From the IMG/VR virus record IMGVR_UViG_2585427757_000006: DNA of 64,000 nt; one strand, given 5' to 3'. The notes beneath the pieces were generated by a model, which was not told where the DNA came from, made no database searches, and saw nothing but the letters and a program-made list of their open reading frames with translations. Both the position numbers and the translations under genes were made by a program. Positions 14,103 to 23,154 of this stretch are shown in pieces (positions within the stretch are counted from its first letter, which is position 1; the number at the start of each line of letters is the position of its first letter). Source of the stretch: a virus. Lineage: Duplodnaviria; Heunggongvirae; Uroviricota; Caudoviricetes.

Positions 14103-14558
14103 TCAACGGGGAGTAATAAAGCGTTCAGAGCCTAATCGCTCTAATTCAACGATGGCCATCTTTGACGCCTGAACGATCATGTCTCGGCGATGCGAAAAGG
14201 CGGCGACAGCATGTTTGTATATGTCTGCGATGTGCCGTGCTTCATCCAACTTCTGCCTTTTAGACAGATACTGTGGGTTTGTTTTAACCTTAGCGTCCAG
14301 TACAGATTCGTTGAACTTAATGCCGTTCATACTCAAGTTCTTACGCTCTGTGTCGTATAGCTTTGCTTCAACAGCTTCAAGGTTAAGTTTTGCCTCTGCG
14401 ACACTTCTTTCTGCATGAGCGAGTTTTGAGCCATACTCCATTAAAAGGCGGGGTTGTCTACGCCAGACTTCCTCCAGATTGTCTCGGTCAAACTCGAGAT
14501 CAGACATTATTTTCTCGTAAATATCGGCGATCATGCACATTTCCTTATCACTTATCAT
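14103..14558 (-). CDS. hypothetical coiled-coil protein (151 aa)
   Basis: ORF track; same strand and operon context. Confidence 0.45.
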   Translation of the reverse strand: MISDKEMCMIADIYEKIMSDLEFDRDNLEEVWRRQPRLLMEYGSKLAHAERSVAEAKLNLEAVEAKLYDTERKNLSMNGIKFNESVLDAKVKTNPQYLSKRQKLDEARHIADIYKHAVAAFSHRRDMIVQASKMAIVELERLGSERFITPR

Positions 14559-14660
14559 TTTGTATTGATTATATCATTGTAATGATGAGGCAATGAGCTT
14601 GAAGATAGGGGGGGTGAGGGGATAAGGGAAAACATGGCCTTTATGGCCATGTTTATTGGA

Positions 14661-15830
14661 TCACGTCTTAATAGTTTCTGCTACGTCGGCTAATATCGCT
14701 TCTAGTCGTTCTCCCTCTTCAGGTCTGAAGTAAAGAATGTTGGGGTTAAACCCGTAAAAGACAGTAACGTCAAGGTCTGGAAGATACTCCTTCCTGCCGA
14801 CCAAATCGGATGGCTTGTTTTTGTTGTTAAACAATGAAGTTGCCCGGCTGCCACACGTCAGCACATAGGTCGGACGCACCAGATTGATCTCTTCACGCAT
14901 AAAGTCGGTGAACTGGCCGATCTCGTCTTTGGTGTAGTCTTTTTCTTTGTCTTTAACCTTCTTGCAAACACCTGTGACATAGAGATCGCCCATGCGTAAA
15001 TCTCCAGCCGTCAATAGCTTGGCCTTAAAGTCGTCGTATCCGTTCTCCATAAAGTAACCGGTTCGAGCATCATTGCCGTTCGCATTGTCCAGAATGATCA
15101 TGATTTTCGGCTTAATACCAATGCTGGGGCGGATTAGTTCATCACCTAAGCCCATTTCAGCCGCCATCCGCGTCATGAGTACGTTAATTTCAGCCGAACG
15201 TTTGGGGTTCATCTCAAACGGACGTGAGGCTTTAACTGCGTCTATGACAAGGTTTCCCATCAATTCAGCCTGGTCGCGTAGGCGCTCTGGATCAGTTGCT
15301 GGCAGACTGCCTGGCTCGATGGATGCAAACGCCCCTACTTTTTGCAGCGATTCGCGCACTCGACTATTACAGGCACGTTTCTCGACAGCTTCTTCGAATT
15401 GCGCCAGTGACTCGAATTTGCCGCCAACTTTTTCTCGCGCTCTCATGATGGCTTGGCAGCCATTCTCAGAACACCCCTTCACAGCAGAGAAGGGCGCATA
15501 CAGCACCTGGCTGCCATCTTCAAGCGTGCGGATCTCGATTCGGTTAGATGACACGTTAACGTCTGGTGGCAATACGCGAATGCCATAGGTCAGCGCATCT
15601 TTAACCAGCCCCTGGTGTTTATCTTCGCCAAGAATAGTGAGAGCAGCAGCGAAAAACTCTGCGGGATAATGAGTTTTCAACCACATAGATTGATAACTGA
15701 TTAAGGAGTAAGCAACAGAGTGTGATTTGTTGAAGGCATACGCGCCGGATTTCTCAAACATATTCCAGATTTCTTCGGCTCGTTCGTGCGTCAGGCCATT
15801 GCTCTCTTCGACAACACCGGTAATTTTCAT
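14661..15830 (-). CDS. dnaE: DNA polymerase III alpha (DnaE-type) C-terminal segment
   Basis: FNKSHSVAYSLISYQSMWLKTHYPAEF matches the conserved DnaE motif; ATG overlaps the HNH gene stop. Confidence 0.8.
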   Translation of the reverse strand: MKITGVVEESNGLTHERAEEIWNMFEKSGAYAFNKSHSVAYSLISYQSMWLKTHYPAEFFAAALTILGEDKHQGLVKDALTYGIRVLPPDVNVSSNRIEIRTLEDGSQVLYAPFSAVKGCSENGCQAIMRAREKVGGKFESLAQFEEAVEKRACNSRVRESLQKVGAFASIEPGSLPATDPERLRDQAELMGNLVIDAVKASRPFEMNPKRSAEINVLMTRMAAEMGLGDELIRPSIGIKPKIMIILDNANGNDARTGYFMENGYDDFKAKLLTAGDLRMGDLYVTGVCKKVKDKEKDYTKDEIGQFTDFMREEINLVRPTYVLTCGSRATSLFNNKNKPSDLVGRKEYLPDLDVTVFYGFNPNILYFRPEEGERLEAILADVAETIKT

Positions 15831-16561
15831 GCAGTCACCTCATCAATCTTCACGAACTCATCCCCATTGGAGGCCAGCCAGTTCCGTTGGCGCTCCCAGC
15901 TCCATATCTCTTCACGCATTTCACTATGCAGGCGAATGTGGGCGTCTTCTGGAAGTGCTACAAGATTCCCAGGGGCGTTATCTATCGTATCGCGGTTAAT
16001 ATGGTGGACATGTTCATCGTCACGTAGCTCCCGACCGAGACGTTCTTTCGCTATCAATCGATGAACGTATTCGTATTGCGAAACGCCATTGTTACCAACC
16101 AGCTGCATCATGTAGCCGTTGGTTTTTACGATGATGCCACCTTTGTAGTTGTTCGCTTCTTCTCCGATCTTTCCGCGTTTGGCAGCCGCCAGCTTTTCCT
16201 TCGTCTCCGCGCGGATTGTTCTGCCGGTTAGCTTTTTCGAAACGGTGGCCACTCGCTCATCGATATCAGCACGCAGACCGGCATTCCACGAGGTTTTCCC
16301 ATACATAGGGTTGCCAGTGCCAGTCCGGGCTTCGGAGAGACGCTTCATACGTTCGTCATTATTTTTGTTTTTGCCACGATTCCAGGCTGGGGTAGCGGAG
16401 ATCCGCGCGCTTCCGCGCCTGATCCCCCATTTGGCTAATAAGCGGTCAATATTTGCCTTGCTGCAACCAGCTTCGGCGGCAATGTCTTCTTTTCTCATCA
16501 GGTCAACCATGTAACGCTGACGTAACCATTCTTCTGTGATTTTGTACTTCGTACTCGGCAT
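15827..16561 (-). CDS. HNH homing endonuclease inserted between the two dnaE segments
   Basis: HNH motif HVHHINRDTIDNAPGNLVALPEDAHIRLH; N-terminal NUMOD-like repeats (NPMYGKTSWNAG, GRTIRAETKEKLAAAKRGK). Confidence 0.85.
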   Translation of the reverse strand: MPSTKYKITEEWLRQRYMVDLMRKEDIAAEAGCSKANIDRLLAKWGIRRGSARISATPAWNRGKNKNNDERMKRLSEARTGTGNPMYGKTSWNAGLRADIDERVATVSKKLTGRTIRAETKEKLAAAKRGKIGEEANNYKGGIIVKTNGYMMQLVGNNGVSQYEYVHRLIAKERLGRELRDDEHVHHINRDTIDNAPGNLVALPEDAHIRLHSEMREEIWSWERQRNWLASNGDEFVKIDEVTA

Positions 16562-16609
16562 TTCTAAGACTCACTAAACAAATTGTTTTCTTATCTTATA
16601 AATTAATTC

Positions 16610-18973
16610 TCAAATATCGAAGCTCGTTATGTCGGCATTTATTGCCATTGCTTCGGCATAAGTGCGACGCTCACCATCAGCACAAAGTAGGCGTGCTGCT
16701 TTATGGATTTTTCTCGTAGAACCATCATCCAGTGACACTGTCACCCAGCCTTCCTCCGCTCGCTTAATGAAGTCGCCGCCAATGGATTTCATTTTCTCCA
16801 TATCTTTTTTCCCGATCGCTTTCCTGACCGAGTCTGCTTCCGCCATTGAGAACCCCGCCAAGATTCGCGTAGCAGCCATGATCTGTTCCTGATAAATCAG
16901 AACTCCGTTTGTGTCGCGAGAGATGTCGTCCAGCATTGGGTGTAAGGAATGTGGGGCCATGAAGCCTTTGGCCACGGACACATAATCGTCCAACATGCCG
17001 GATTGAATCGGGCCAGGTCGGAAGAGCGCAGTTGTAGCGACGACCGTTTTAAAGCTCATTGGCTCAATTCCACCACCTAAATCTTTAAGCAGCTTGCGCA
17101 TTGGGCCTGATTCAAGCTGGAATACGCCCTGTGTATACCCTGCAGCAAAACCATCCAGCACCTTGCGATCTTCAAGAGAAATGGCATCAAGATTGATATC
17201 TTCACCTGTGTTCTCTTTTATGTAGCGTTTTGCACTATCGAGCAAATCGAGAGTTGCCAGGCCAAGCACGTCCAGCTTAATTAGGCCCATAGCCTCGCAG
17301 TAACGCTTGTCAAATGCGATACAACGCGCGTCACCACGGCGTTCAACCGGTGTACGTTCTGTCAGAGGAACACCTGCTACGATCATCCCTGCCGCATGTC
17401 TACCAAAGCCACGCATAAGGCTTTGTAACTTGCAGGCTGCATTGAATGCATCAGGATATTTTGTTGCGTATTTGTCGAGACTTGCCAGTTGTTCGCGCAG
17501 CTCTTCCAATGGAAGGCTATCATCCTCGACGTTCTTCAGTTCTTTTGATACCGCCATATCTGCGGACTCCACACCATAAATACGAGCGGTGTCACGTAGT
17601 GCAGAGGCTGCGCCCAGGTAGGTGAAGTTCGGAATGCCTGCAACGTAATCTTCGCCGTAGCGTTCATTCAGATACTCGATCACCTCATGGCGACGTGCCT
17701 GGCTGAAGTCCAAGTCCGCATCCGGCAAGTCGAGACGCTCAGGGTTGATGAAACGCTCAAACAGAAGACCGTGACGGATTGGGTCGACGTTGGTTATGCC
17801 TATGCACCACGCCACCAGAGAACCGGCAGAGGAACCACGACCAGGCCCAACGGGAATGCCAGTTTCACGACTATGATTCATCAGATCGCGCACCATCAGG
17901 AAGTAACCACAGAATCCCAGGCGAGTCAGCGTGTCCATTTCGTACTTTAGCCGCTCAACATAAACCCTGTTCTCAGAAGCAGGTGGTGTGTATCCAAACT
18001 CTTTTGTGGTAAGACGTTTACGCAGCCCTGCAACAGCCAGTTTCATCAGCGTTGCAGGTTCGTCGTCTGCCATCTTGGGCAGTGCTGGTGGCAATTCATG
18101 CCAGCGCCATGTGCAGGCATCGATAATGGAGTCCTGCGTTGTTGAGGCCATTGCAGCTGTTACCGGCACATCCATGCGAACGGAGAAGGCTTTAAGCGCC
18201 TCAAGGAGATGGCGACGACCATTGATGGCGTTATCTCGCTGGTGGGGGATACGCAGACGATGCGGCTGGTCGATTTTTATGTTGTTCGTAACCATGTGCG
18301 CAATGTCTTTAATGTCTGCATCGTCGATCGATTCGTAATAAGCGGGATAGAACGCCACTGGCTCTATTTTCAATGCGCTGGCGACTTTCATCGCCCGGAC
18401 GTTAATCTGGTCGTAGAATGGGGTAGGGTGCGGATAAACCACACTATAGAAGTTGTCTTTTCCACCCGCTGTAATCAGTGTGCTTATGATTTTTGCAAAA
18501 TCGTTGCGTTGGAACACGCTACCGATGTCGGAAGTAAGCAGGATGATGTTGCCTTTGGCATATGTAGAAACCAACTGTTCGAGCGAGAGACGCGGCACAA
18601 AGTAGAACTGTTCTCGTGTGTTGGCCACCGTCATTAGTTCGCAGATGTCGCGATATCCTTGCTCATTTTTAATTAGAGCGGTAAACGAGTAGTTACGTCC
18701 CCGCTCTAATGATTCCATACATCTCATAGATTCTTTAGCAAGTTTAGCCCGGTGCTCGTATGTGGGATCATCAACAATGTTTAGTTTCACACCACAAATA
18801 ACCGCCATGTCGTCACCAGCGGCACGTTGTAGTGGAATAACGCTCGCAATATTCATGCTATCTGCTGAAATTACAGCGGTGTAGCCAGCTTCTCTGGCAA
18901 TCTTCACCGCGTTTTCAGCTTTTAGAGCCGACTCCCCAAGTGAGAAGTCAGTTCGAACCATCAGTGCCTTCAT
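16610..18973 (-). CDS. dnaE: DNA polymerase III alpha (DnaE-type) N-terminal segment (PHP plus polymerase core)
   Basis: GPGRGSSAGSLVAWCIGITNVDPI and LIKLDVLGLATLDLL match conserved DnaE core motifs. Confidence 0.85.
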   Translation of the reverse strand: MKALMVRTDFSLGESALKAENAVKIAREAGYTAVISADSMNIASVIPLQRAAGDDMAVICGVKLNIVDDPTYEHRAKLAKESMRCMESLERGRNYSFTALIKNEQGYRDICELMTVANTREQFYFVPRLSLEQLVSTYAKGNIILLTSDIGSVFQRNDFAKIISTLITAGGKDNFYSVVYPHPTPFYDQINVRAMKVASALKIEPVAFYPAYYESIDDADIKDIAHMVTNNIKIDQPHRLRIPHQRDNAINGRRHLLEALKAFSVRMDVPVTAAMASTTQDSIIDACTWRWHELPPALPKMADDEPATLMKLAVAGLRKRLTTKEFGYTPPASENRVYVERLKYEMDTLTRLGFCGYFLMVRDLMNHSRETGIPVGPGRGSSAGSLVAWCIGITNVDPIRHGLLFERFINPERLDLPDADLDFSQARRHEVIEYLNERYGEDYVAGIPNFTYLGAASALRDTARIYGVESADMAVSKELKNVEDDSLPLEELREQLASLDKYATKYPDAFNAACKLQSLMRGFGRHAAGMIVAGVPLTERTPVERRGDARCIAFDKRYCEAMGLIKLDVLGLATLDLLDSAKRYIKENTGEDINLDAISLEDRKVLDGFAAGYTQGVFQLESGPMRKLLKDLGGGIEPMSFKTVVATTALFRPGPIQSGMLDDYVSVAKGFMAPHSLHPMLDDISRDTNGVLIYQEQIMAATRILAGFSMAEADSVRKAIGKKDMEKMKSIGGDFIKRAEEGWVTVSLDDGSTRKIHKAARLLCADGERRTYAEAMAINADITSFDI

Positions 18974-19151
18974 GTGTTTTTACCTTTCTGGTTTTTTTGA
19001 TTTTGTCATTGGGGAAGCCTACGAACTTCCCATGCATCGAAATCGCAACTTCTTTTGCTGATTGGTGACAATCGGGCTTGTCTGGACACACCAGACAAGC
19101 CTTACCAGTTTCAGAAGCAGCGATAAGAGAGCCGAAACATCCTTTACGCAC
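18948..19151 (-). CDS. small Cys-rich protein (67 aa)
   Basis: ORF track; CLVCPDKPDCH cluster. Confidence 0.3.
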   Translation of the reverse strand: MRKGCFGSLIAASETGKACLVCPDKPDCHQSAKEVAISMHGKFVGFPNDKIKKTRKVKTHEGTDGSN

Positions 19152-19153
19152 GA

Positions 19154-20389
19154 TTAACCAAATATTTTTTGAACAACTTCACGAGCCGCTTGTGCAGAAG
19201 CTGAAGGGAGTTTGTTAATGAAAGAACGCTCAATACCTGTCACAAAGTCGCCTCGCATCATTCCAATCTTGGCCGACAACAAAAGTTCACGAGGGCCAAT
19301 TGGCTGACTAATAAGGTGTTCTTCGTATCCATCGCGAACGATACCGGCAAACTTAACCATCTTTTCAGCGTATTCATCCACGATGCCTGCATTTGTCAAC
19401 ATGTTGATCTCTGCGTCTTTGCTCATGTATTTCACATTCGAAACGATGCCAAAACGCGAAAAGTTCGCGGCGTTCTGGATGTTTGTACCCTGGTACAAGC
19501 CGGTTTCATCACCAGATCCGTTCGTGTTGCCAGTGCCAATGAAAGCAAACCGTTCATGCGGAGTAATGCGACGCCATTCTGGAGTTGCCTCTTTGATGAC
19601 CAACGCTTCACCTTCCAGCACTGGCTGATACACGCCAAGAATTTGTGGAAACGCAAAGTCGTATTCATCCGCGAGGTAAACCCAGCCATGCTTCATTGCG
19701 AGCGCAAGCAAGCCAGGTTCGAAATACGTAGAGCCATCACGCGCCAGAATTTGCCCCGTAACATGTGCCTCTTCCATTGATGCTGTATGTTGGGCACGGA
19801 TCAACGGACGATTGAGCAAAGCACATAGCTGTGTAGGCAATGACGATTTGCCTGTTCCTGCATGACCCCACAAATAGCCAGGTATGCCAAGTTCAAGCAT
19901 CATGAAAATATCTTTGATCAGTTCGAAGTCGCCATATACGTAGCCTTTCTTCACTTCGGGAACGAACTCTGGATACGGCGTATTGACGTTGACGCTAACC
20001 ATGAGCGGCGTCCCACGTTTTGTTCCGAGTTCTTCCACCGTTACGTTTAGCAGTTCGTGAGCTGCGACCAGATCTGTCTTGTACTCAACTGTGCCTGTGT
20101 AGCCAGGGCTACTGGTCAAGCCAGAAGATTTGGCCATTTCGCTTTTTTGCTCGGCACGTTTAGCTTGAATTGCATCAAGTGCCTTTTTCGATAGCGTTGG
20201 TTCATCTGGAAACTGCGTTGTGTACATTTTCAGTACGGTGTCAGGATCGGCATCTTTTACTGACTCAGGAATGCCCTCGCAATTACCATTGGCTACATGG
20301 GACTTAAAATAGTGAAATGATTTGCCGCACCACTTGCAAACAAGGTAATCAGAAGGATTTTTTTCATTTTGCAGTGCAGTAGTCGTCAT
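19154..20389 (-). CDS. AAA+ ATPase, CobS/MoxR-like
   Basis: Walker A GHAGTGKSSL; N-terminal Cys cluster CKWCGKSFHYFKSH; paired with a vWA protein upstream. Confidence 0.8.
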   Translation of the reverse strand: MTTTALQNEKNPSDYLVCKWCGKSFHYFKSHVANGNCEGIPESVKDADPDTVLKMYTTQFPDEPTLSKKALDAIQAKRAEQKSEMAKSSGLTSSPGYTGTVEYKTDLVAAHELLNVTVEELGTKRGTPLMVSVNVNTPYPEFVPEVKKGYVYGDFELIKDIFMMLELGIPGYLWGHAGTGKSSLPTQLCALLNRPLIRAQHTASMEEAHVTGQILARDGSTYFEPGLLALAMKHGWVYLADEYDFAFPQILGVYQPVLEGEALVIKEATPEWRRITPHERFAFIGTGNTNGSGDETGLYQGTNIQNAANFSRFGIVSNVKYMSKDAEINMLTNAGIVDEYAEKMVKFAGIVRDGYEEHLISQPIGPRELLLSAKIGMMRGDFVTGIERSFINKLPSASAQAAREVVQKIFG

Positions 20390-20484
20390 GCGTTTTTCCT
20401 TTGTTCTCTAATGAGCGTTCAACTTCTTATATAAATATATCATCATCTATCGTAAGTAGTTACTTATCGTTAAGGCTGTTTTGT

Positions 20485-22593
20485 TCACTTTAAAATGATA
20501 CGAGATAGTTCAGTAACTACAGATGAACCAAGACTATCAACGCTCGTTACCAGGGCATGATTTGAGTAAAATCTCTCCGGTGCGTCAGTCATGATGCCAA
20601 TTGCCATCAAATCAATATCAGTCTGCGTTTCAATTTGCTTCGCAACTGAACGCAAATGAGCGTCAAAACCTCTCCCAACAGCCCACGGCGCGCCATCACT
20701 CAGAACAAGCATGATCTTCCTGTCCTCCATGCGACCGGAAAATAACGATGCAAGGCTGGCTATGCTTTCACCATCCACGTTATTAAGAAGTGGGAATGTG
20801 TAGCCTACGCACCCCATACGTGAGCGAACTTCGCGAGAATTTACCTTTTCATTCCAATTTTTGATGATAGGTAGCATTAAAGATTCAAAGCGAGAGAACT
20901 CATACTTGACAGCCTTAAGTTCTCCTGCCGCCATATGACTACCAAATGTAGTGAAGCCGGTGATAATGTTGGGAACATTTATTCGATCAAGGGCATCGGC
21001 GATGGTATATGCACTTGCAAGAGCCAGTTTAATCGTTATACCACTCATTGAACCTGATAAATCAATCACTTGTTGAACACAGGCGTTAACGGCTTTAGAT
21101 TCTTCTTTTTTACGAAACACGCGAGCATCATTCATTGCTAATCTGTAGATACTAGAACCATGAATGCGCCCCCGACGCTGGCCCGGTATAAACTGAACTC
21201 TGTTTCTGCTTGCTATTGCTCGCTCCAGGTCTTTTGCCAGCGTCGACGAAACACCTGACGAAAGATGCTTTTCAATATATTTGTCGAAGAGCTGGTTGCC
21301 TTCAGGAACGATGCGATAGCGGCTGATTGGATATCCTCCCAAATCAATATCGGAGAATGTTTTAATAAGCCGTTTGATATGGGCTTCTGCCTGATCAATG
21401 GAGCCGATGAAGTCGTATGAGCGATTGTATGGCCTGTATTCGCTTTTCGAGCTTTCTGTTAACTCGCTTTTAATCGTTTCGGATAGCGCATCTTCTGTCA
21501 TGCCTCCGACTTCATCTTCCATGCTATCCAACTCCTCTAAAGCCTCTTCCAGACTCATTTTTGACGGAGTTGGGATATCTGAAGAGCCGTCTTCTGTCGT
21601 TTTTCTTTTTTCGTGGTCAGCGGTTAATGATTCTGACGCCGCGTTATCAGAAGCATCAGAATCTGATACCTCTTTATCATTTTCTGTATCATCGAATATT
21701 GTTTCTGATGATTCAGAATTATCTGAATCATCACTGTCGTTATTATCATGTTTGTGCTTACTATGTGATTCTGATTTGATAGATTTGTGGTTATCTAACA
21801 CTGAGGGTGTCTCATGATCTTCGTTGTCTTCACTGTTTTCTCCAGAGGCATCCGTCTGGTCAGCGTCTGAAGGATCGGAAGTTTTTCCCGGAGCTGACTC
21901 CTTACCTTTGCTTTCACTTTCAGTGTCTTTGAGGATCTTAGCTATGGTCGCAGCCACCTTTACACAATCCTCGGTGCAAGACATGTTACGCACGGCCACA
22001 TCGATACCATGTTCTTTTAATAATGAAATTGGTTTCTCAATGACAGGCCAATATTCATCCATGAAATCTACGAACGGTGCTTGGCCATCCCAGGCTCTTA
22101 CAACCGGACAGAGAAAGAAGTTTAGAAAAAGCGCGCGCTGATCTTTGCCACAATAAGCAATAGCCTCTGAAGCCTTTGGTTTAAAGACTTTTTCGATTAT
22201 AAGGCGCTGAGTTGCCATCAGATTACGTCTTGTTCCGTTAAAGACCTGACCCATTTTTCGCTCGATGAACACGTCTTCTAAGGCATTCCATAGCGACCAG
22301 GAAGGAACGCGTCCTTTTTCTCTCATTTTGTTGGACACACGAATATCGGTAAACAAAATGTGAGCAACCTCATGATCGAGAAATCCGCGCACAGCATTCA
22401 TCAATGCCGGTGTTGCGTTATCCGGGATTGATGGGATGTTTACGAGAATTGGCTCTCCATCATCGTTATAGCGTACATAAGCGTCGTCCCCTCGTTCTGC
22501 AACAGGGATGTTTTTACCTGAAAGGAGAGCGACTACTCGTTTTACACTGTCACGGAAGTCCTGAACCTCTTTGATGGAACGTTTTTTAGACAT
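20485..22593 (-). CDS. von Willebrand factor A domain protein, CobT-like, with long acidic Ser/Asp-rich linker
   Basis: MIDAS motif VIDLSGSMSG in C-terminal domain; central low-complexity acidic region. Confidence 0.8.
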   Translation of the reverse strand: MSKKRSIKEVQDFRDSVKRVVALLSGKNIPVAERGDDAYVRYNDDGEPILVNIPSIPDNATPALMNAVRGFLDHEVAHILFTDIRVSNKMREKGRVPSWSLWNALEDVFIERKMGQVFNGTRRNLMATQRLIIEKVFKPKASEAIAYCGKDQRALFLNFFLCPVVRAWDGQAPFVDFMDEYWPVIEKPISLLKEHGIDVAVRNMSCTEDCVKVAATIAKILKDTESESKGKESAPGKTSDPSDADQTDASGENSEDNEDHETPSVLDNHKSIKSESHSKHKHDNNDSDDSDNSESSETIFDDTENDKEVSDSDASDNAASESLTADHEKRKTTEDGSSDIPTPSKMSLEEALEELDSMEDEVGGMTEDALSETIKSELTESSKSEYRPYNRSYDFIGSIDQAEAHIKRLIKTFSDIDLGGYPISRYRIVPEGNQLFDKYIEKHLSSGVSSTLAKDLERAIASRNRVQFIPGQRRGRIHGSSIYRLAMNDARVFRKKEESKAVNACVQQVIDLSGSMSGITIKLALASAYTIADALDRINVPNIITGFTTFGSHMAAGELKAVKYEFSRFESLMLPIIKNWNEKVNSREVRSRMGCVGYTFPLLNNVDGESIASLASLFSGRMEDRKIMLVLSDGAPWAVGRGFDAHLRSVAKQIETQTDIDLMAIGIMTDAPERFYSNHALVTSVDSLGSSVVTELSRIILK

Positions 22594-22691
22594 GGCTAAT
22601 CCTTTGTTATGAAAACAAATTATTTACTAGTGTGTTTAATGTAGCACTGCGCGAACAGGGAACTAAGCCATTCGCGCAGGGAGAAGAGGGG

Positions 22692-22904
22692 TTAACAGAT
22701 TCTGACGGCTAAAGACCCGGAGCCGATATTGAGAAGCGTGAAGCGTTTGTTGTTAAGTTCGAATATAAAGCCAGTTGTGTCATTCACACCAACCTGAATC
22801 TGCTCATTCGGTAGATCGGTGAGGATGTCAGCTACACACTCATCAGCTAATTTCTGTACGTGTCCGATCTCAAGAGCGATTAGGCTGGAAATAGTGGTGT
22901 TCAT
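22692..22904 (-). CDS. hypothetical protein (70 aa)
   Basis: ORF track only. Confidence 0.3.
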   Translation of the reverse strand: MNTTISSLIALEIGHVQKLADECVADILTDLPNEQIQVGVNDTTGFIFELNNKRFTLLNIGSGSLAVRIC

Positions 22905-23154
22905 TCAATCAATCCATTCTAACTTATACTATGGTAAGGAATACTACTAAAATTTATATCAATACTGAATACATTCATATCATATGCAAGTTAATTTTCT
23001 TACCTGTTTTGGGCTAATTTTTCTCCGTGCAATGGCCTTTAACCGGTCTTTTAAGTGTCTATCGAAAAAATGATAATAGCTTTACAACCCTAACCTTTGA
23101 TGTAATATCGGTAAGCACTTACCAGAGAGAATTGAACGCGCAAAGGTTGTAACA

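Follow-up and report, generated by a model that had tools for sequence, protein, structure and literature searches.

A CobS/CobT-type ATPase-adaptor pair with a conserved metallopeptidase motif in the replication operon of an SSU5-like phage-plasmid

The subject of this study is a pair of adjacent minus-strand genes in a tailed phage (Caudoviricetes; IMG/VR record IMGVR_UViG_2585427757_000006), of which the 64,000-nucleotide stretch that was analyzed is referred to here as the window. The genes lie in the replication region of an SSU5-like phage-plasmid and encode a CobT-like protein with a von Willebrand factor A (vWA) domain and a CobS-like AAA+ ATPase. We propose that the pair is an ATP-driven machine made up of a motor, an adaptor, and a peptidase, whose action on a protein client falls early in infection and is probably connected with replication, and which is not a cobalt chelatase. 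The probability that we attach to this reading as a whole is about 45%. One element of it, that the pair is an AAA+/adaptor machine other than a chelatase, we consider very likely. The pair is already present in databases and in the literature and hence is not novel as an object; it is the standard annotation that is questionable.

A first-pass annotation of the window, made from the letters alone, had described a CobS/MoxR-like ATPase and a CobT-like vWA protein within the replication module. Both open reading frames (ORFs) and both signature motifs, Walker A and MIDAS (the metal ion-dependent adhesion site), are indeed present (Table 1), and PHROG, Pfam, and PDB matches agree with the description. 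The separation of CobS-type from MoxR-type ATPases, which that annotation had suggested, was carried out. The ATPase matched PHROG 249 (E = 1e-106) and the Pfam family AAA_5 (2e-15), and its residues 142 to 411 aligned with residues 39 to 315 of Brucella CobS (PDB 9ujv; E = 1e-25), whereas the next PDB matches were the AAA modules of midasin (about 1e-11), CbbQ (9e-7), and NorQ (1.6e-3). Among the NCBIfam models, CobS (TIGR01650) gave 1.7e-24 and GvpN gave 1e-5. The vWA protein matched PHROG 1576 (E = 4e-300), both Pfam CobT families (CobT, 4e-27; CobT_C, 3e-82), and the solved CobT structures 21vt and 9uka (1e-15 and 3e-13). Because the CobS structure and the CobS model outscored CbbQ, NorQ, and GvpN, and because the vWA protein matched both CobT families and the solved CobT chains, the pair is assigned to the CobS/CobT type. 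On sequence grounds, this resolves the ATPase as CobS-type and excludes MoxR proper. As in MoxR-class pairs, an AAA_5-type ATPase and a vWA protein that has a complete MIDAS are encoded by adjacent genes. Residues K181 (Walker A), D241 and E242 (Walker B), N288, R312, and R367 were invariant across five phage lineages; the protein thus keeps the Walker A and B, sensor 1, arginine finger, and sensor 2 residues, whose roles are taken from a Brucella preprint (10.64898/2026.07.21.739949). A single-sequence AlphaFold2 run on the CobS-like protein yielded no usable model (predicted local distance difference test [pLDDT], 38).

The cobaltochelatase CobNST (EC 6.6.1.2; Brucella melitensis 9ujv/9uka) provided the top PDB match for both window proteins, which share its CobS-type AAA+ and CobT architecture. 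The differences are nevertheless considerable. Identity is at most about 30%, and both proteins fall far below the equivalog cutoffs (86.6 against 558.55 bits for TIGR01650; 67.2 against 759.05 bits for TIGR01651). The window order is cobT-cobS rather than the canonical cobS-cobT, and the pair sits in a replication operon with no CobN partner, to judge from the annotation of the related phage Cyrano. The N-terminal domain of the CobT-like protein carries an HExxH motif that is missing from three canonical CobTs, and the CobS-like protein has a 140-residue N-terminal extension with a CCHH knuckle-like motif.

The most informative feature of the pair, a HEVAH motif within the CobT-like protein's N-terminal domain, was missed by the first-pass annotation. 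A first homolog search was dominated by near-identical SSU5-like proteins, which made up all of the top 120 matches; diversity came from representative and profile searches. A scan of 1.84 billion representatives returned 5061 related clusters, 516 of them at E <= 1e-30. Among the best 150 representatives, 146 proteins were full length; 143 of these carried HExxH within the first 200 residues, and all 146 carried DxSxS. The motif was found in 57 of 62 full-length copies on viral contigs, the exceptions being four that are cut by contig ends and one that reads HEVAR, and it was also present in the copies of ICP2 and of cyanophages, Roseobacter phages, and Gordonia phages. Residues H74, E75, H78, N103, D107, and E111 were invariant among the SSU5-like, Rhizobium phage, Vibrio ICP2, and cyanophage P-RSM4 proteins (19 to 67% identity). 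In 71 diverse homologs of 27 to 47% identity, D73, H74, E75, H78, D107, and E111 were invariant, as were the MIDAS residues D511, S513, S515, and D633. Searching the PDB with the N-terminal domain alone (phmmer) gave chance matches only, and canonical CobT sequences were therefore taken from annotated plasmids. The three examined (Sinorhizobium, Cereibacter, and Pandoraea) have GDSMALRKACHD-type sequence at the HExxH columns and lack the motif.

An AlphaFold2 model of the N-terminal domain, built from a 116-sequence alignment, was of high confidence (pLDDT, 92.2; predicted template modeling score, 0.87). It shows one helix, a three-stranded sheet, and then further helices; helix 62-81 bears HExxH, and helix 99-117 bears the acidic cluster. 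The best structural neighbors of the model were gluzincins of the M48 and M56 families (ZMPSTE24, BepA, BlaR1, and minigluzincins), and ArdC, SprT/Spartan, and CapP were also among them. Foldseek found no match for the model in the PDB; among viral models it found that CobT/vWA proteins from many tailed phages and haloarchaeal viruses have the same domain. With the M48/M56 gluzincins the domain has in common an HExxH on the active-site helix and candidate acidic ligands on the helix that follows. It differs from them in having no Pfam peptidase match and in probably serving also as a docking module for the lid of the AAA+ protein. The published structure of a CobT N-terminal domain is described as M48C-peptidase-like (10.64898/2026.07.21.739949). 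Sequence and model together suggest that the phage adaptor has retained an apparently working gluzincin site, which true CobT looks to have lost, and we favor the view that this site is catalytically active. Since the adaptor keeps it, cleavage or processing of the client, or of a partner, is probably a further activity of the machine. Among T4-like jumbo phages, Iyer et al. (2021, PMC7824862) had already noted a MoxR-vWA pair bearing an N-terminal metallopeptidase. Liu et al. (2021, PMC8651126) held the "peptidase" label of cyanophage CobT to be a mistake.

Outside the N-terminal domain, the CobT-like protein follows the canonical plan. The aligned span of Brucella CobT, residues 314 to 616, includes the segment that inserts into the ring pore (Q373 to R413). 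The first-pass annotation had drawn attention to an acidic Ser/Asp-rich linker of about 150 residues. The linker is acidic and rich in Ser and Thr as well as Asp and Glu (51 D+E, 46 S+T, and 16 K+R), and it measures 175 residues; it is no peculiarity of this protein, being a family trait common to true CobT, whose equivalent disordered linker is about 90 residues long.

In Brucella, CobS forms a hexameric ring on nucleotide binding, the N-terminal domain of CobT binds the small subdomain of CobS, the acidic linker of about 90 residues is disordered, and the segment that precedes the vWA domain enters the ring pore as a shaft (10.64898/2026.07.21.739949). The MIDAS face of CobT touches CobN (10.64898/2026.07.21.739949), on which the catalytic site of the chelatase resides (also PMC7689651). 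That the phage proteins assemble into motor and adaptor in the manner of Brucella CobST is, by analogy, a well-founded inference. The CobS-like protein would form an ATP-hydrolyzing hexameric ring; the N-terminal domain of the CobT-like protein would dock onto its small subdomain, and the pre-vWA segment would be the shaft that enters the pore. The vWA domain would then grip a client protein with its MIDAS face and pass ATP-driven movements on to it, and the gluzincin site would cleave or process the client or a partner. The pairs NorQ/NorD, CbbQ/CbbO, and RavA/ViaA likewise combine an AAA_5-type hexameric motor with one MIDAS adaptor for one client. Their adaptors lack a zincin domain, however, and these pairs have known clients (NorB, Rubisco) and operate outside a phage or replication context.

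The N-terminal extension of the CobS-like protein contains a second putative metal site. The first-pass annotation had noted an unusual cluster of Cys residues in the stretch CKWCGKSFHYFKSHVANGNC (residues 18 to 37). Alignment of N termini revealed a conserved motif in this stretch, which reads as a CCHH knuckle-like motif (C18, C21, H26, and H31; CKWCGKSFHYFKSH); C37 is not conserved and lies inside an insert specific to the SSU5 lineage. The pattern C-x2-[C/D]-x4-H-x4-H is kept in the SSU5-like, Rhizobium-phage-like, Ralstonia, and Duganella copies, and it is followed in the aligned N termini by a segment reading HP[DE]..T...Y..FP..P..S. Its spacing equals that of the retroviral-type CCHC zinc knuckle (C-x2-C-x4-H-x4-C), but His replaces Cys as the final ligand, and some relatives carry Asp in place of the second Cys. 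The knuckle has no Pfam match. Among the aligned copies, the extension is missing from ICP2, cyanophage, and canonical CobS, and the knuckle is restricted to the group in which the pair is linked to dnaE. It may bind nucleic acid or protein.

The placement of the pair among replication genes, as described in the first-pass annotation, recurs well beyond the window. Downstream of cobS on the same strand lie a 67-residue Cys4 ORF, the phage gene for the alpha subunit of DNA polymerase III (dnaE), and genes for UvsY, a single-stranded DNA-binding protein (SSB), an exonuclease, and RecA. The operon as a whole reads, on the minus strand, 70-residue ORF, cobT, cobS, 67-residue ORF, and dnaE. A gap of 95 nucleotides separates cobT from cobS, 2 nucleotides separate the cobS stop codon from the 67-residue ORF, and the latter overlaps the start of dnaE by 26 nucleotides. 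No terminator-like site was found on the minus strand from 14144 to 23299, and a promoter scan upstream of the operon revealed no convincing minus-strand promoter. From this layout, cobT and cobS would be cotranscribed with the polymerase gene in an operon that adjoins a repressor-like gene. In other genomes, dnaE was located within 5 kb downstream of cobS in all 13 SSU5-like viral loci, in all 9 distant viral loci (36 to 44% identity), and in 19 of 21 loci from bacterial genomes (Alpha-, Beta-, and Gammaproteobacteria and others, many on contigs of 102 to 118 kb). In integrated relatives from Ralstonia and Duganella, the order is a divergent HTH_3 gene, an ORF of about 70 residues, cobT, cobS, a sigma-like gene, a Cys4 protein gene, dnaE, gp32, a 5'-3' exonuclease gene, and recA. 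In T4-like cyano- and pelagiphages, where the order is gp47-gp46-cobT-cobS-(small ORF)-gp45-gp44-gp62, cobT was upstream of cobS in 41 of 41 loci and gp45 lay within 5 kb downstream of cobS in 35 of them. In ICP2, the genes that follow the pair encode primase, helicase, and an A-family polymerase. The pair occupies early-looking regions in Roseobacter phage CRP-810 and in the Gordonia Woesvirus phages, with the ATPase gene ahead of the adaptor gene. In cyanophage P-SSM2, cobS is used as the marker early gene (PMC6628666).

In T4-like cyanophages and pelagiphages ("cobS"/"peptidase (CobT)"), in ICP2 (gp41/gp42), and in haloarchaeal tailed viruses, the unit (PHROG 249, 1576, and 459) consists of the same two genes in the same order, with HExxH, MIDAS, and the ATPase motifs kept and with an early or replication-region position. 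These versions differ from the window proteins in showing only 19 to 28% identity to them and in lacking the CobS knuckle. Their neighbors also differ, being gp46 and gp45 in the T4-like phages and primase, helicase, and PolA in ICP2, whereas the window pair neighbors dnaE. The statement of the first-pass annotation that such pairs occur in some large phages and that their role is unclear therefore holds.

Two candidate extensions of the family were rejected. What looked like a PHP-vWA fusion in Xanthomonas phage JGB6 (OQ436456.1, locus L093) comes from a frameshift-ridden record, in which plain cobT and cobS fragments are labeled "PHP domain-containing protein" and "DNA polymerase III subunit alpha." The AAA_5 ATPases of Herelleviridae (Staphylococcus K-like and Listeria phages) are distant MoxR-like proteins whose neighboring gene lacks both HExxH and DxSxS, and they are not family members. 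CobT-like genes with the motif GF[LIV]DHEV[AG]H were observed on contigs of about 102 to 118 kb (loci L099 to L129) from Xenorhabdus, Morganella, Yersinia pestis, Massilia, Phyllobacterium, Ancylobacter, Paracoccus, Magnetospirillum, Chitinibacter, and Faunimonas. The spread across these genera suggests that phages or phage-plasmids of similar size, all sharing the replication block, form a very broad supergroup.

With respect to the client, the pair may remodel or process a protein on which the establishment of phage DNA replication or recombination depends, for which a replisome or DNA-bound protein of the phage or the host would be a candidate. The pair might, for example, fit the phage DnaE to host accessory factors, or clear proteins off DNA. 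Neither a clamp nor a clamp loader was annotated in the stretches of Cyrano that were read (positions 1 to 106,900 of 108,379 bp). We regard a replication-linked client as the likeliest because of the repeated placement among replication and recombination genes, the knuckle specific to the dnaE-linked group, and the dependence on host clamp factors. The assignment of the client to replication or recombination is nonetheless tentative, and we hold it with somewhat less conviction than we would an even bet.

Several observations weigh against the proposed machine or its link to replication. We found no functional data on the pair in the literature on SSU5, pHCM2, pMT1, and Cyrano. The synteny with replication genes may reflect shared early timing only. 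The dnaE-carrying supergroup represents one inherited arrangement, which leaves only about three independent lineages. The replicative polymerase varies among these lineages (C-family DnaE, A-family, and B-family gp43), and therefore no single protein of the phage replisome can be the common client; that three polymerase families share the pair makes a host-side or generic client quite possible. HExxH has been lost in Pseudomonas phage nickie, which reads SEISK (L094:7974-10058), in one viral-contig locus, which reads HEVAR (L022:4238-6229), and in 3 of the 146 representatives. The nickie and L022 loci still hold the cobT-cobS-dnaE synteny. Since lineages without the motif keep both the pair and its synteny, proteolysis is not indispensable everywhere.

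A more specific version of the proposal is that phage CobST is a MIDAS-targeted, ATP-driven metalloprotease and remodeler at the phage replication fork or on the host replisome, where it might load phage Pol III alpha onto the clamp and clamp-loader factors of the host or strip and cleave proteins bound to DNA, analogous to Cdc48 plus Wss1/SPRTN, and that the CobT of B12 synthesis is a derived adaptor whose protease site was lost. We consider this version unlikely. If it is true, marine virome counts that treat the "cobS/cobT" genes as auxiliary metabolic genes for B12 have misassigned them.

A host-side client is also what a function in host takeover or antidefense would entail, in which the pair would remove a defense factor, a nucleoid protein, or a regulator early and at the expense of ATP, loosely like the antirestriction metalloprotease ArdC. 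Such a client would explain the presence of the pair in phages with unrelated polymerases, and the early timing, the position next to the immunity region, the peptidase motif, and the occurrence of ArdC, SprT/Spartan, and CapP among the structural neighbors all fit. Counterdefense genes are usually variable or patchy, however, whereas this pair is a stable syntenic core down to 27% identity. The only PADLOC match, to DrmE (9.5e-4), ran across the low-complexity linker and was judged to be due to chance. We rate this explanation as quite unlikely.

Two further functions appear improbable to us, and to a similar degree. The first is that of a virion-assembly chaperone or protease that folds, assembles, or processes structural proteins, like the p618/p892 tail-development system of Acidianus two-tailed virus (ATV). 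The MoxR-vWA pair of T4-like jumbo phages has much the same domain architecture as described, an AAA+ chaperone with a vWA cochaperone fused to a metallopeptidase. Its authors propose a role in virion assembly (PMC7824862), and the conserved peptidase motif would suit such a role; a MoxR-vWA system is also implicated, as cited there, in ATV tail development. The context of the window pair gives no support to this proposal. In every lineage examined the pair is in the replication or early block, about 20 kb separate it from the tail and head genes in the window, and cobS of P-SSM2 is early. The virion proteome of S-CREM1 contains no MoxR ATPase among its 14 proteins, which is weak evidence. Homology did not reassign the pair to a structural role, the outcome that the first-pass annotation had named as refuting it; virion assembly has only been proposed, and context and early timing argue against it.

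The second is that of a metallochaperone of the NorQD, CoxDE, and CobST kind, which would insert or repair a metal center such as the one in NrdB, which is di-iron, or the one in the PHP domain of DnaE. The typical function of MoxR/vWA pairs is the maturation of metalloenzymes (10.64898/2026.07.21.739949), the phage encodes both NrdAB and a PHP-domain DnaE, and the pair adjoins dnaE. ICP2 and the T4-like phages have no DnaE, however, so that a PHP client cannot be general, and a zincin active site is not a known requirement of any metallochaperone in this class.

This leaves the prevailing annotation, that of an auxiliary metabolic gene whose products join host CobN and raise B12 levels during infection. 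To our knowledge, E. coli lacks cobN and carries out no de novo synthesis of the corrin ring, and Salmonella uses the class II chelatase CbiK. In the stretches that were read of Cyrano, the nearest complete phage, neither CobN nor any other cob gene is annotated, and the remaining 1.5 kb is too short to encode CobN. Cyrano does encode a class I NrdAB reductase, together with ThyX, DHFR, and a T4-like set of recombination and replication proteins. The pathways that use CobN-type and CbiK-type chelatases are distinct (PMC7689651). The ribonucleotide reductases of cyanophages are class I as well, as was already remarked by Sullivan et al. in 2005 (PMC1079782), and the original B12 rationale is thereby undermined. 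Although homology to CobS and CobT spans the whole motor and most of the adaptor, although a B12 role has been proposed for cyanophages (PMC1079782) and archaeal viruses (PMC8651126), and although a few lineages such as nickie lack HExxH as true CobT does, this explanation is made very improbable by the chelatase complement of the hosts, the lack of an annotated CobN, the low equivalog scores, the B12-independent phage reductase, the reversed gene order, and the conservation of an HExxH and a CobS knuckle that serve no role in chelation.

The naming of the pair deserves comment in this light. The intact peptidase motif, the lack of CobN in the phage genome read, the linkage to replication genes, and the reported early expression make the B12 label doubtful, and for the pair in this host it is probably wrong. 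Database names for the pair include "porphyrin/cobalamin biosynthesis," and the NCBI name of close relatives is "cobaltochelatase CobT-related protein." The Cyrano record (L001:10424-13863) labels the two genes "cobalamin synthetase" and "dimethylbenzimidazole phosphoribosyltransferase," which is a mix-up of nomenclatures: these names belong to the unrelated CobS and CobT of Salmonella, whereas the proteins follow the Pseudomonas nomenclature. The canonical cobS-cobT genes of the alphaproteobacteria Sinorhizobium (L088:594-4666) and Cereibacter (L089:1-4660) lie beside bolA and a gene for a J-domain protein, with no further cob gene annotated in the roughly 8.6 kb shown.

The window was assigned to an SSU5-like phage-plasmid on the basis of nucleotide identity. 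Over the region from 16000 to 25000, identity was 95.8 to 98.3% with the E. coli phages CMS-2020a, Cyrano, and PhiR41_1 and 75 to 79% with Salmonella phage SSU5 and its Klebsiella relatives. E. coli plasmids of about 110 kb matched the same region at up to 99.4%, and 813 plasmid records matched in all. Where the window carries an integrase and a helix-turn-helix (HTH) repressor-like gene, SSU5 has a tRNA-Asn. The dnaE gene of the window is interrupted by a free-standing HNH_3+NUMOD3 homing-endonuclease ORF. The two halves (787 and 389 residues) correspond to residues 1 to 781 and 785 to 1166 of the intact Cyrano DnaE of 1168 residues, with no polymerase sequence missing, and a two-ORF DnaE was also seen in several related loci (L012, L016, L019, L020, L024, and L101). 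A region C-terminal to HHH_6 in DnaE resembles the uracil-DNA glycosylase superfamily; the match is weak in the window (E = 0.0047) and is recorded for the Ralstonia and Duganella homologs. The motif of the 67-residue ORF, GCFG..C..C.....C, is common to the N termini of proteins of 180 to 240 residues whose genes hold the equivalent position in Pseudomonas phage nickie, Rhizobium phage RHph_X66, and Ralstonia and Duganella prophages; of these proteins, only the Cys4 head is left in the SSU5 lineage.

Table 1. Positions in the window of the two genes, their domains and motifs, and the adjoining genes
Feature	Position	Strand	Basis or remark
cobT-like gene, 702 aa: N-terminal gluzincin-like domain, acidic linker, shaft, vWA/MIDAS domain	20485..22593	-	ORF; Pfam CobT and CobT_C; PHROG 1576; PDB CobT chains
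CobT-like N-terminal domain, residues 1-225, M48-like zincin fold (modeled)	21919..22593	-	
HEVAH zincin motif (H74, E75, H78), CobT-like residues 74-78; with E106, D107, and E111 on the next helix, a putative complete gluzincin-like site	22360..22374	-	conservation; coordinates checked
Acidic Ser/Asp/Glu-rich disordered linker, residues 226-400	21394..21918	-	composition
Shaft segment and vWA domain, residues 445-702	20488..21261	-	aligns to Brucella CobT 314-616
MIDAS DLSGS	21049-21063	-	within VIDLSGSMSG, residues 509-518
cobS-like gene, 411 aa: N-terminal extension, AAA+ large and small subdomains	19154..20389	-	ORF; AAA_5; PHROG 249; CobS 9ujv
CKWCGKSFHYFKSH: C-x2-C-x4-H-x4-H zinc-knuckle-like motif in the CobS-like N-terminal extension	20297..20338	-	aligned N termini
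Walker A GHAGTGKSSL, CobS-like residues 175-184	19838..19867	-	
67-aa Cys4 ORF between cobS and dnaE	18948..19151	-	PHROG 6337, E = 3e-45
Phage dnaE (Pol III alpha), split: N part 16610-18973, C part 14661-15830, HNH endonuclease ORF 15827-16561 between	14661..18973	-	Pfam PHP, DNA_pol3_alpha, finger, HHH_6, HNH_3+NUMOD3; Cyrano DnaE alignment
70-aa ORF at the head of the operon	22692-22904	-	layout
Divergent HTH repressor-like gene	23155-23541	+	weak HTH_19 match; Cyrano label "putative repressor"
Tyrosine integrase, upstream of the cobT operon	23536-24639	-	

The pair is a stable set of core genes in T4-like cyanophages and pelagiphages, in SSU5-like phage-plasmids (more than 800 plasmid records and a 108-kb contig of Yersinia pestis), and in the ICP2 phages of Vibrio cholerae, all of them elements that are either very abundant or of medical relevance. 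Virome studies routinely count it as an auxiliary metabolic gene for vitamin B12. The conserved motif, the gene neighborhood, the CobN-free annotation, and the early expression point instead to an uncharacterized ATP-driven form of protein processing early in infection. Cyrano and SSU5 grow on E. coli and Salmonella, which are tractable hosts for this hypothesis.

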